From assembly GCF_057098645.1 (NCBI RefSeq), contig NZ_CM169472.1: a DNA stretch of 64,000 nt; one strand, 5' to 3'. A program made the translations under genes and the position numbers. How positions within the stretch are numbered: position 1 is the first letter of the stretch; each line of letters starts with the position of its first letter. Below are positions 47,545 through 61,125 of the stretch, piece by piece. The notes beneath the pieces were generated by a model. That model was not told where the DNA came from. It saw only the letters and a list, made by a program, of their open reading frames with translations, and ran no database searches.

Positions 47545-48939
47545 TCAATATGCCGCTTTGTTAACGAAACCTTTGAATACCGTCAGGAAAACGATTTTGA
47601 TATCGAACCAGACGCTCCATTCGCGGATGTACTCAAGGTCGAACTCGACGCGTTTTTCCATTTTCTCCAGCGTGTCGGTTTCGCCACGCCAGCCGTTAAT
47701 CTGCGCCCAGCCGGTAATGCCCGGTTTCACCTTATGGCGCAGCATGTAGCCTTCAATGAGCTGTCGATACTGTTCGTTATGCGCCACCGCGTGCGGACGT
47801 GGACCGACAATCGACATCCCCCCGGTCAGCACATTGATAAACTGCGGCAGTTCATCCAGCGAGGTGCGGCGCAGAAAGTTCCCCACTTTGGTGACGCGCG
47901 GATCGTTCTGCGTCGCCTGAGTCACCACTTTGTCGTTCTCCATCACTTTCATAGAACGGAACTTCCACACTTTGATCGGCTTGCCATCCATGCCGTAGCG
48001 AGTCTGGCGGAAAATAACCGGCCCCGGTGAGCTCAGTTTCACCGCCAGCGCAATGCAGCACAGCACCGGGGAGATCAGCAGCAGGATAAGCGTCGCCAGC
48101 ACAATGTCTTCTGCACGTTTTATCAGACGGTTAACCCCGGAAAGCGGCGTGTCATACAGCGGCACCACCGGTACGCCGTTCATCTCTTCGATACGGGAAT
48201 GGAGAATGTTGAAGGTAAAGACATCGGGGATCAGCAGCACCGAACAGGTGGTGTCCGCCAGTTGATGGACCAGTTTTTTCACTCGCGCGCCGTCGCACAT
48301 CTGCATCGCGATATAGACGTTATGAATCTTGCCCGCTTTCGCATCCTCGACCAGTTGTTGCAGATTGCCCGCCCAGTCGTTAGAAATGCCGCCCGGTTTT
48401 GGGTCGTGGTATACGCCCACCACTTCAAACCCTAACCACGGCTGATTACGGAAGCTCTCCATCAGCATTTGTCCGGCGGCTAAATCCCCCGCCACCGCGA
48501 CCATCCGCTTGTTATAGCCATGATTACGCAGCCAGCCCGCCCCAATGCGAATACATGAACGGCAAACCACCAGTCCGATGCTGGTCAGCCCATACCACGC
48601 CAGCCAGATTTTCAGTTGCGTGTCGAAATCATTGTTGAACGCCACCAGTCCGGCGCTGAAAATCACGCTTAAGGTCCAGTTTTGTAGCAGCAGGGCAAAT
48701 TCTGTCGCGGCCCGAACACCGCGCCATGAGCGATAAAAATCGGTGATGCCGCCCAGCATCTGGAACACCACCAGCGTAATCAGCGCCACCAACAGGTGCA
48801 TGTAGAGGAATGACAGTCCGCTGACTTCGCAAACCAGCCATAGCCCGGCAAACATGATGGTGATATCTGAAAAGCGTTGCACCATAGAGATTAACGATGC
48901 ATTGGTTTTCGCTCGCTCGCGCTTTTTTAGATTTGTCAT
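47545..48939 (-). CDS. wcaJ: UDP-glucose:undecaprenyl-phosphate glucose-1-phosphate transferase WcaJ
   Basis: ORF 47545..48990 trimmed to MTNLKKRERAKTNASLISMV; 464 aa. Confidence 0.9.
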   Translation of the reverse strand: MTNLKKRERAKTNASLISMVQRFSDITIMFAGLWLVCEVSGLSFLYMHLLVALITLVVFQMLGGITDFYRSWRGVRAATEFALLLQNWTLSVIFSAGLVAFNNDFDTQLKIWLAWYGLTSIGLVVCRSCIRIGAGWLRNHGYNKRMVAVAGDLAAGQMLMESFRNQPWLGFEVVGVYHDPKPGGISNDWAGNLQQLVEDAKAGKIHNVYIAMQMCDGARVKKLVHQLADTTCSVLLIPDVFTFNILHSRIEEMNGVPVVPLYDTPLSGVNRLIKRAEDIVLATLILLLISPVLCCIALAVKLSSPGPVIFRQTRYGMDGKPIKVWKFRSMKVMENDKVVTQATQNDPRVTKVGNFLRRTSLDELPQFINVLTGGMSIVGPRPHAVAHNEQYRQLIEGYMLRHKVKPGITGWAQINGWRGETDTLEKMEKRVEFDLEYIREWSVWFDIKIVFLTVFKGFVNKAAY

Positions 48940-48954
48940 CGTTGTTCCTGTTCT

Positions 48955-49070
48955 ATTGTCGCCTCGCCCCTCACCCCGGCCCTCTCCCAAAGGGGCGAGG
49001 GGGAGAAGAAAGTTCCGTGCTCACTTCTCTCCGCAGACAGTAGAGCGTCAGGGTGAGGGGGAAAGTAATG
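48955..49070. repeat. GC-rich nested palindromic element in the wcaJ-cpsG intergenic region
   Basis: ctcgcccctcaccccggccctctcccaaaggggcgaggggg ... gggtgaggggg; complementary arms read directly; family not identified. Confidence 0.4.
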
Positions 49071-49073
49071 ACA

Positions 49074-50444
49074 TTACTCGTTCAGCAACGTCAGCAGAGT
49101 TCGCGTTCGCGCTTCCATCAGCGGTACATCACCGCGCGATTCCACATTCAACCGCACCACCGGTTCGGTGTTGGAGGAGCGCAGGTTAAAGCGCCAGTCG
49201 GCAAAGGTCATGCTGATACCATCGGTGCGATCCACCGCCAGCGCCTCGCGGCTAAAATGCTGTTCGACGCGGTTAATCGCCTCAACGGGTTGTGACAGTT
49301 TGCTGTTGATCTCACCGCTTGCCGGGAATGCCGCCATCCGGTCGCGCACCAGTTCGCCCAGCGTTTTTCCTTTCAGGCACACCAGTTCGGCGACCAGCAG
49401 CCACGGGATCATGCCGCTGTCGCAGTAAGCGAAATCACGGAAGTAATGGTGGGCGCTCATTTCGCCACCGTAGATGGCGTCTTCCTTGCGCATACGTTCT
49501 TTAATAAAGGCGTGTCCGGTTTTCGACATCACCGGCGTACCGCCAGCGGCAGTCACCACATCAACGGTATTCCAGGAGAGACGTGGATCGTGGATGATCT
49601 TCGCGCCGGGATTTTTTTCGAGGAACGCTTCTGCCAGCAGGCCGACAATGTAGTAGCCTTCGATAAACTGCCCTTTTTCGTCAAACAGGAAGCAGCGGTC
49701 AAAATCGCCATCAAAGGCAATGCCCATATCCGCGCCGTGTTTGATGACCGCATTGCGGGTGTCGTCGCGGCATTCCGGCAGTAGCGGGTTAGGAATACCG
49801 TTGGGGAAATTGCCGTCCGGCGTGTTGTGCACTTTGATTAATTCCACAGGTGCGCCGAGGGCTTTAAAGCGGGCTTCGATGGCGTCCACCACCGGACCCG
49901 CTGCGCCGTTCCCGGAGTTGATCACCAGCTTGAGCGGCGTGAGGTTTTTGACGTTGATATAACCGAACAGGTGATCAACGTAAGCGTCACGCAGGTTGAT
50001 TTGCTGATAGCGACCGCGTTTGGTTTCATCGACGGGAGGAAAGTCGTTGGCTTCAGCCAGGCGCTGGACATCGCGCAGTCCGGTATCACCGCTGATCGGG
50101 CGAGCCCCTTCGCGCACCAGCTTCATGCCGTTGTAATCCATCGGATTATGGCTGGCAGTAACTTCAATGCCGCCATCCACGCCGAGATGGAACGTGGCGA
50201 AATAGATCTCTTCGGTGCCGGACATACCGATATCCAGCACGTCAACGCCCGCATCCTGTAAACCTTTTGCCAGCGCCAGTTTTAAGGTTTCGCTGGTGAG
50301 ACGGACATCACCGCCTAACACAATGGTTTTCGGTTTGAGAAATTCGCCATAGGCGCGACCAATGCGCCAGGCGATATCTTCATTCAGTTCTTCGCCTAAT
50401 TTCCCGCGAATATCATAGGCTTTAAAGCAGGTTAATTTTTTCAT
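49074..50444 (-). CDS. cpsG: Phosphomannomutase
   Basis: ORF 49074..50492 trimmed to [20 protein letters not shown]; 456 aa. Confidence 0.95.
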
Positions 50445-50519: not shown

Positions 50520-50636
<117 letters not shown>

Positions 50637-61004: not shown

Positions 61005-61125
61005 CGGGTTCTGTTGCCGGATGCGGCGTGAGCGCCTTATCCGGCCTACGGAGCTGGTTTGCTTGCCGGATGCGGCGTGAGCGTAGGTCGGATAAGATGC
61101 GTCAGCATCGCATCCGACAGCGGAT
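61005..61125. repeat. Cluster of REP palindromic units (BIME) between wcaA and wzc
   Basis: Repeated gccggatgcggcgtgagcgccttatccggcctac-type units. Confidence 0.8.

Follow-up and report, generated by a model that had tools for sequence, protein, structure and literature searches.

A BoxC repeat pair between cpsG and wcaJ occupies an intercistronic hairpin slot that is probably kept for pairing

What is the palindrome that separates cpsG from wcaJ in the colanic-acid (cps) operon, and does it play a role there? The question matters for how much of the initiating transferase WcaJ is made relative to the operon's other products. In the window (the whole 64-kb stretch of DNA analysed here) both genes lie on the minus strand, with the phosphomannomutase gene cpsG (49074-50444) upstream and wcaJ (47545-48939), which encodes the 464-residue undecaprenyl-phosphate glucose phosphotransferase, downstream. 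The intercistronic spacer between them is limited by the cpsG stop codon (49074-49076) and the wcaJ ATG (reverse complement of 48937-48939) and spans 134 nt (48940-49073, minus strand); it represents the longer of the alleles discussed below. Gene names and gene ends follow the RefSeq annotation of homologous E. coli regions. A possible upstream TTG start of wcaJ at 48990 was rejected, because RefSeq takes the ATG in genomes with the long as well as the short spacer allele. A preliminary description of the sequence had placed a GC-rich palindromic element between the two genes and had proposed folding of the minus strand of the spacer, a genome-wide search for further copies and a comparison with the same spacer in other strains, the outcomes of which are given below. 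The GC-rich palindrome is confirmed as real, and it is strictly intergenic, within 48940-49073.

Both arm pairs listed in that description are borne out. CCTCGCCCCT (48962-48971) pairs with AGGGGCGAGG (48991-49000) over 10 nt with 100% complementarity, and CCCCTCACCCCGGCCCTCT (48967-48985) pairs with 49042-49060 over 19 nt with 84%. The compound structure is, however, not cleanly nested as had been thought, since the two 5' arms share five bases (48967-48971) and the two pairings are thus partly alternative. On the minus strand, positions 48967-49001 form an intact unit of the BoxC/PIT/TMECO repeat family, with the layout CCCTCGCCC-CTTT-GGGAGAGGG-CCG-GGGTGAGGG-G. In this family the second loop sets the type (TTA for A, CCG for B), and units with one mismatched triplet, which is allowed, are denoted 'mm' (PMC4666352). 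The unit here is of type B because its second loop is CCG, and 'mm' because the central G of the C-block is found opposite the A of the first G-block. An extra G-rich block AGGGGCGAGG (48962-48971, minus strand) overlaps the TMECO tail and is the perfect complement of the C-block at 48991-49000. The unit is joined by a linker of ~22 nt (49002-49023, no strand assigned), which is homologous to the linker of other BoxC composites (alignments A4 and A5) and through which the BLAST match to the K-12 copy near yagE continues (query positions 27-81). Beyond the linker sits a decayed inverted partner unit on the plus strand (49024-49061), CTTCTCTCC-GCAGACAGT-AGAGCG-TCA-GGGTGAGGGGG, in which the outer block GGGTGAGGGG alone is intact. 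In this family A-type and B-type units are often combined in inverted pairs. With its TCA loop the partner is type-A-like, and although it fails the TMECO consensus it aligns column by column with intact units of Enterobacter, Kluyvera, Buttiauxella and Lelliottia and with the K-12 yagE copy. The element is a head-to-head BoxC pair, made of an intact type B unit, the linker and a mutationally decayed inverted partner. The sense run GGGAGAGGGCCGGGGTGAGGGG (48967-48988, minus strand) also fits the canonical four-tract G-quadruplex motif; a quadruplex was ruled out by NMR for the DNA oligonucleotide (Holder et al., PMC4666352).

The same E. coli repeat has been named BoxC, then PIT element (for potential intrastrand triplex) and then TMECO (PMC4666352), in the work of Bachellier et al. 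in the 1990s, Hoyne and Maher (2000/2002) and Holder et al. (2015; PMC4666352), and BoxC is also known as a 56-bp E. coli family of ~32 copies (Cozzuto et al., 2008). The suggestion that the element belongs to another class of intergenic repeat was correct in this sense, the class being a family of the 1990s. The published consensus is 5'-CCCTCNCCC N3-6 GGGNGAGGG N3 GGGNGAGGG[G/T/C/-]-3' (CCCTCNCCCN3-6GGGNGAGGGN3GGGNGAGGG; PMC4666352). Searched as a pattern with 27 specified bases, it is matched exactly and only once in the window, on the minus strand at 49001..48968, and in none of 100 shuffles of the window. Among the K-12 copies the closest is TMECO no. 3, which lies beside yagE and relative to which the first loop is one G shorter here. 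This copy aligns end to end with the whole composite and likewise carries a degenerate second unit, while its flanks are unrelated. The 'mm' state is common to our unit and K-12 nos. 3, 10 and 18. Nos. 17 and 18 of K-12 form a head-to-head A+B pair in the arrangement found here, in contrast to the four other K-12 pairs, which are tail-to-tail.

Copies are also abundant in other genomes. Among 5,426 E. coli genomes, 4,893 were matched by a 64-nt query (unit plus linker, relaxed E-value), at 65,411 places in all. The median per genome is 15 places and the maximum 29; 65,361 places are chromosomal and 50 are on plasmids. With the full 134-nt query the BoxC core was matched at unrelated loci in 3,530 genomes. 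The copies per genome from the shorter query agree with the published figures, which are 23 for K-12 and between 1 and 29 for individual strains (PMC4666352). The element thus resembles the published family in its three-block C/G/G layout, type-B CCG loop, intergenic location, multi-copy chromosomal distribution and strain polymorphism; it differs in the heavy decay of the partner unit, and the published TMECO account is without orthologous occupancy across genera. No second BoxC is found within the 64-kb window, and an Rfam 15 scan of 48500-49500 (E up to 10) returned three chance-level matches (at most 15.5 bits against gathering thresholds of 40-60, E >1). This single copy and the empty Rfam result are what could be said for a chance palindrome, or a locus-specific hairpin outside any repeat family. 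Such a reading is refuted, with next to no probability left to it, by the exact consensus match absent from shuffles, the tens of thousands of E. coli copies and the yagE homology. We regard it as almost certain, judging from sequence, that the element is a BoxC and not a new repeat class, because the exact match (0/100 shuffles), the dispersed copies and the yagE homology, which reaches into the linker and second unit, all agree. The preliminary description missed three points: that the family is already known, that the second half is a decayed inverted partner, and that the whole is an allele of ~11% of E. coli.

The contrast drawn earlier with the REP units near 50.5 and 61.0 kb also stands. 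A search with a 34-nt REP consensus, allowing up to 3 mismatches, identified only two matches, both canonical: 50582-50615 on the minus strand, in the cpsB-cpsG spacer, and 61016-61049 on the plus strand, in the spacer near 61.0 kb. Membership of the element in the REP/BIME family was rejected, as the REP stem (of the GCCGGATG...CATCCGGC type) is absent from it. There is no sequence relationship between the two families, BoxC being built of three blocks and REP of a single imperfect stem. BoxC is not known to be associated with RAYT/TnpA-REP. The three larger intercistronic spacers of the cps operon each contain a palindromic repeat (REP, REP and BoxC).

What would the element look like in the mRNA? 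The whole spacer on the transcribed (minus) strand is predicted to be stable, with a folding energy of -56.3 kcal/mol and a z-score of -2.75 (2 of 200 shuffles fold as well). The 101-nt core alone reaches -52.2 kcal/mol (z -3.04, with none of 200 shuffles as good), and the plus strand folds less well (z -1.79). In the minimum-energy fold of the mRNA a 12-bp outer stem, formed by 49049-49060 as the 5' strand in mRNA sense (minus strand) with 48967-48978, surrounds three small hairpins; the same stem is found in the centroid fold and is the consensus stem in alignment A4. It begins 13 nt past the cpsG stop here compared to 10 nt in K-12, and it finishes 27 nt before the wcaJ ATG compared to a cross-species median of 19 nt. 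The wcaJ ribosome-binding region AACAGGAACAACG (48940-48952, minus strand), with the Shine-Dalgarno AGGA at 48946-48949, is conserved in nearly all species. The fold leaves it unpaired, which makes it unlikely that the structure directly occludes wcaJ translation. The short hairpins of other genomes, taken by themselves, give modest z-scores (-1.66 in K-12 and -1.67 in Salmonella).

Comparison with other E. coli strains revealed that the 134-nt spacer is a minority allele. It is present in 508 of 5,426 genomes, which is ~11% of the ~4,650 with the locus (locus flanks are found in 4,669 genomes), while K-12, EDL933 and ST131 have a spacer of 54-55 nt with one plain hairpin. In a spread sample of 40 matches, 5 places of ~729-732 bp correspond to the long allele and 34 of 648-652 bp to the short, and one is a partial rfbK match and so not this locus. 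All E. coli sampled are collinear in the coding sequence on both sides and differ only in the spacer. Between long-allele strains and the window the flanks are 97.3-99.9% identical, a range shared by short-allele strains, and the long spacer is at least 97.8% identical among carriers, which have the decayed half in common. Since the flank identities are equal in range and the spacers so similar, down to the same decayed half, we read the long form as probably one old allele on diverse backgrounds and not as the product of repeated insertion. The E. coli E69 spacer (L006 1374-1500) is a long-allele variant that has lost 7 nt between short direct repeats of the G-rich tail (GGGGTGAGG|CGACAAT), has point changes as well and no longer matches the TMECO consensus; this deletion exemplifies the slippage-type decay reported for TMECO loci.

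The short-allele hairpin of K-12, CCCTTACCCC-ACUGC-GGGTAAGGGG, has arms which resemble the outer BoxC arms, and compared to the long allele the outer arms CCCCTCACCC and CCCTTACCCC and the loop ACTG..GCGG look related. We make no claim that the K-12 hairpin derives from the long allele by specific deletions, as the flanks differ too and the pathway is not reconstructable. It can be noted that the published 'palindrome effect' of TMECO consists of deletions that leave a hairpin, and that a short hairpin is the alternative allele here as well.

Is the hairpin itself a feature of this junction beyond E. coli? Using a WcaJ query we collected the locus from 80 GTDB species representatives, among which the wcaJ product is 77-99% identical, and extracted 74 cpsG-wcaJ spacers in mRNA sense; with K-12 and the window this makes 76, in which helices of at least 7 bp were counted. 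Such a helix is found in 75 of the 76 spacers. The median distance from the cpsG stop to the start of the helix is 7 nt (at most 15 nt in 69/75), and from its end to the wcaJ ATG 19 nt (IQR 18-23). These boundaries hold steady in spacers of anywhere between 39 and 357 nt, so that all the length variation is inside the stem. What fills the slot comes in three grades. The first is a plain hairpin of 9-13 bp, as in E. whittamii, Citrobacter, Salmonella arizonae, Leclercia, Kosakonia, Silvania and some Lelliottia and Enterobacter. The second, in three spacers (L020, L028 and L031), is a single palindrome of four blocks, with a TMECO match on each strand. The third is the head-to-head pair, found in the long alleles of E. 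coli and in Enterobacter, Lelliottia, Kluyvera, Buttiauxella, Pseudenterobacter and others. BoxC-type double blocks occupy 29 of 75 spacers in at least 11 genera and are always in the same order in mRNA sense, with the C-rich double block 5' and the G-rich one 3'.

The interior of the composites is more variable. The loops read TAA...CCG in the window, Enterobacter cloacae DSM 26481, Kluyvera and Buttiauxella, and CGG...TTA in Lelliottia and Pseudenterobacter; the block order of the window composite is that of the Enterobacter, Kluyvera and Buttiauxella alignment. Both internal orientations are present at the slot (L020, L023, L038, L054 and L061 against the window, L032, L045, L068-L077 and L085) with the outer arms unchanged, which suggests either flipping by recombination between the element's own inverted arms or independent insertions. 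In the 357-nt spacer of Enterobacteriaceae bacterium UBA5654 (L056) three tandem copies of a ~65-nt unit are found in the slot, and in the 247-nt spacer of RIT714 (L030) several tandem partial BoxC units of ~43 nt; parts of the repeat can thus be amplified in tandem inside the outer stem. One record labelled Chryseobacterium sp. 18061 (L080, contig NODE_1) carries an Enterobacteriaceae-type wcaJ, 82% identical, with a typical hairpin spacer, and this assembly is probably mislabelled or contaminated.

The plain hairpins allowed us to ask what is maintained at the site. As the MAFFT alignment of 31 short spacers (A2) is not structure-aware, pairs were counted instead in a set of 13 spacers with a stated 9-bp stem (A3), from E. 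coli K-12, E. whittamii, Citrobacter, Salmonella and one metagenome-assembled genome. Standard pairs fill 97.4% of the cells, and three of the nine pairs have changed on both sides (C-G to U-A, U-A to C-G and G-C to A-U). The covariation score was reached by none of 500 shuffles, and in controls where the partner was slid by 1-3 columns pairing fell to 38-74% with 0-1 double changes. The long alleles analysed by RNAalifold have almost no covariation (term +0.33), because the BoxC blocks are nearly invariant, and so they are uninformative about selection. Quasi-palindromes may gain seemingly compensatory changes by template-switch mutation, and the changes seen here consequently support selection without proving it. 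Taken as they stand, the alignments make it likely that the slot is kept for pairing, and we infer that it is pairing, and not BoxC sequence, that is kept at the cpsG-wcaJ site.

As a whole the element is best explained as a BoxC pair in a conserved hairpin slot, serving as a REP-like intercistronic element, to which we assign a probability of about 0.6. What could the role be then? The parallel with REP/BIME elements such as that between malE and malF is close in position: both are stable GC-rich palindromes within operons, placed after the stop codon of one gene and ahead of the ribosome-binding site of the next, and the element begins within 15 nt of the stop, where REPs depress upstream translation. 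As summarised in PMC12306157, REPs stabilise mRNA (Newbury, 1987) and reduce translation of the upstream gene only if less than 16 nt from its stop codon (Liang, Rudd and Deutscher, 2015). By analogy, the element would fold in the polycistronic cps mRNA into a stable branched hairpin, which could act as a barrier to 3'-to-5' exonucleases and thereby stabilise the mRNA upstream of it (cpsB-cpsG). As the stem begins no more than 15 nt past the cpsG stop, terminating ribosomes could also be held up, with less CpsG made as a result. Through either effect the element would determine the ratio of expression between the sugar-nucleotide genes and the initiating transferase gene wcaJ. The presence of REPs in the operon's other two sizeable spacers fits the notion that the repeat family is interchangeable and the stem is what counts. 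This specific REP-like mRNA mechanism is, in our opinion, the most likely role, although it can be put forward only tentatively. The two other options of the preliminary description, that the element may be a transcript-stabilising structure or a regulatory hairpin, gain indirect support from the helix at this slot in 75/76 Enterobacteriaceae spacers and from the compensatory changes. A 10-bp hairpin suffices for about 89% of E. coli, which makes the extra 80 nt dispensable, and the decayed state of the 5' unit indicates that most of the sequence is without constraint. Colanic-acid genes are poorly expressed under laboratory conditions.

A bolder version of this reading makes the cpsG-wcaJ stem-loop a cis-acting RNA element that is conserved in colanic-acid operons across the Enterobacteriaceae, and holds that BoxC composites are not there at random: they would be ancient orthologous occupants, or else the outcome of repeated insertion or expansion targeted to hairpins. 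We consider this version rather unlikely. If it is true, BoxC repeats arise from, or home to, functional intercistronic hairpins, and the long/short polymorphism of E. coli tunes expression of wcaJ and cpsG and hence mucoidy. The feature alone matters little, as it is one more BoxC copy of a family known for ~30 years; the fresh part is the conserved slot before wcaJ and its recurrent occupancy by BoxC. BoxC has so far been treated as an unstable, functionless triplex motif, and here it is found in a slot of fixed boundaries where plain hairpins substitute for it. The question addressed is whether BoxC units are interchangeable intercistronic mRNA hairpins, like REPs, and there is also a modest lead on the origin of BoxC units. 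The 134-nt and 54-nt alleles, in otherwise collinear E. coli operons, represent a natural test case. We found no published account of BoxC at cpsG-wcaJ: the accessible part of the supplement to PMC4666352, a study of 63 TMECO loci, has no mention of wcaJ, cpsG, manB, colanic acid or the exact sequence, and in the literature searched on BoxC/BIME/ERIC surveys nothing specific on the cpsG-wcaJ stem-loop was found.

The serious alternative, somewhat improbable in our view, is a neutral or selfish BoxC pair without any role, which landed in or grew from a pre-existing hairpin and is now decaying and being lost by internal deletions. The apparent conservation of pairing would then reflect the way palindromes mutate, by template switching and intrastrand gene conversion, and not selection. 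Much of the polymorphism described above would be expected for such an unstable repeat: the presence/absence variation (508 long alleles among ~4,650 genomes with the locus), the decay of one half of the pair, the loss of the consensus in E69 by the 7-nt slippage deletion, the tandem amplification of partial units in L030 and L056, and the two composite orientations at one site. TMECO loci have been tied to intergenic instability and the 'palindrome effect' (PMC4666352), and in the earlier reporter tests summarised in the same paper, a list that does not extend to mRNA stability or ribosome stalling, PIT elements had no promoter or terminator activity and RNA polymerase was unaffected by them. 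A neutral repeat does not readily explain, however, why the boundaries of the slot are fixed in at least 11 genera and in 75/76 spacers while the interior is free to change, why BoxC-free species retain a 9-13 bp stem with double compensatory changes, or why occupancy of 29/75 spacers is far above the random-site expectation from the copy numbers in the literature, which are 23 for K-12 and as many as 143 for Enterobacter asburiae (PMC4666352). A role at the level of DNA, improbable as we see it, would involve an intrastrand purine-motif triplex on the G-rich strand, or a cruciform, that pauses replication or transcription and promotes recombination or rearrangement beside the cps/O-antigen region, which is highly recombinogenic. 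Oligonucleotides nearly identical to our type B 'mm' unit do form stable triplexes in vitro, with a Tm of ~70 C, as seen by CD and NMR, and TMECO loci vary more than control loci (PMC4666352). This locus, too, is polymorphic, and in cps transcription the G-rich TMECO strand serves as the non-template strand, which would be single-stranded in the transcription bubble. On the other hand, in vivo DMS footprinting did not support a stable triplex, and a duplex forms if the complement is present (PMC4666352). In the E. coli sampled the coding sequence to either side is always collinear and the spacer alone differs, and species with plain hairpins are without the three-block layout that a triplex needs.

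The hairpin could also be imagined as an internal attenuator or terminator, limiting read-through into wcaJ and the distal genes and overridden by RfaH, a proposal which we consider quite improbable. It would place a stable GC-rich stem directly upstream of the initiating-transferase gene, and stem-loop attenuators have been published for the colanic-acid operon (after wzc) and for Klebsiella cps clusters (between wzc and wbaP). Those of group 1 capsule and colanic-acid operons share with our element the setting of an intra-operon hairpin in an RfaH/JUMPStart-controlled operon, here directly upstream of the initiating phosphotransferase gene, but they are found at another junction (after wzc, before wbaP) and not at cpsG-wcaJ. 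No U-tract follows the stem, the tail being GGGGCGAGGCGACAAUAGAAC here and GGGGCUAAUAAC in K-12. An intrinsic (Rho-independent) terminator was rejected, since this tail is not T-rich and the terminator scan finds nothing at the element; the reporter results cited above likewise speak against terminator activity. The combined scan identified neither a promoter-like site nor a terminator at the element, and on the same grounds an independent antisense sRNA was rejected. A weak terminator-like hairpin does straddle the cpsG stop on the minus strand (49069-49093), with 10 pairs, 3 of them GC, followed by TTACTTTCCC; it comes from a consensus scan only, in which 2 sites were found against 0.7 expected, and is probably due to chance.
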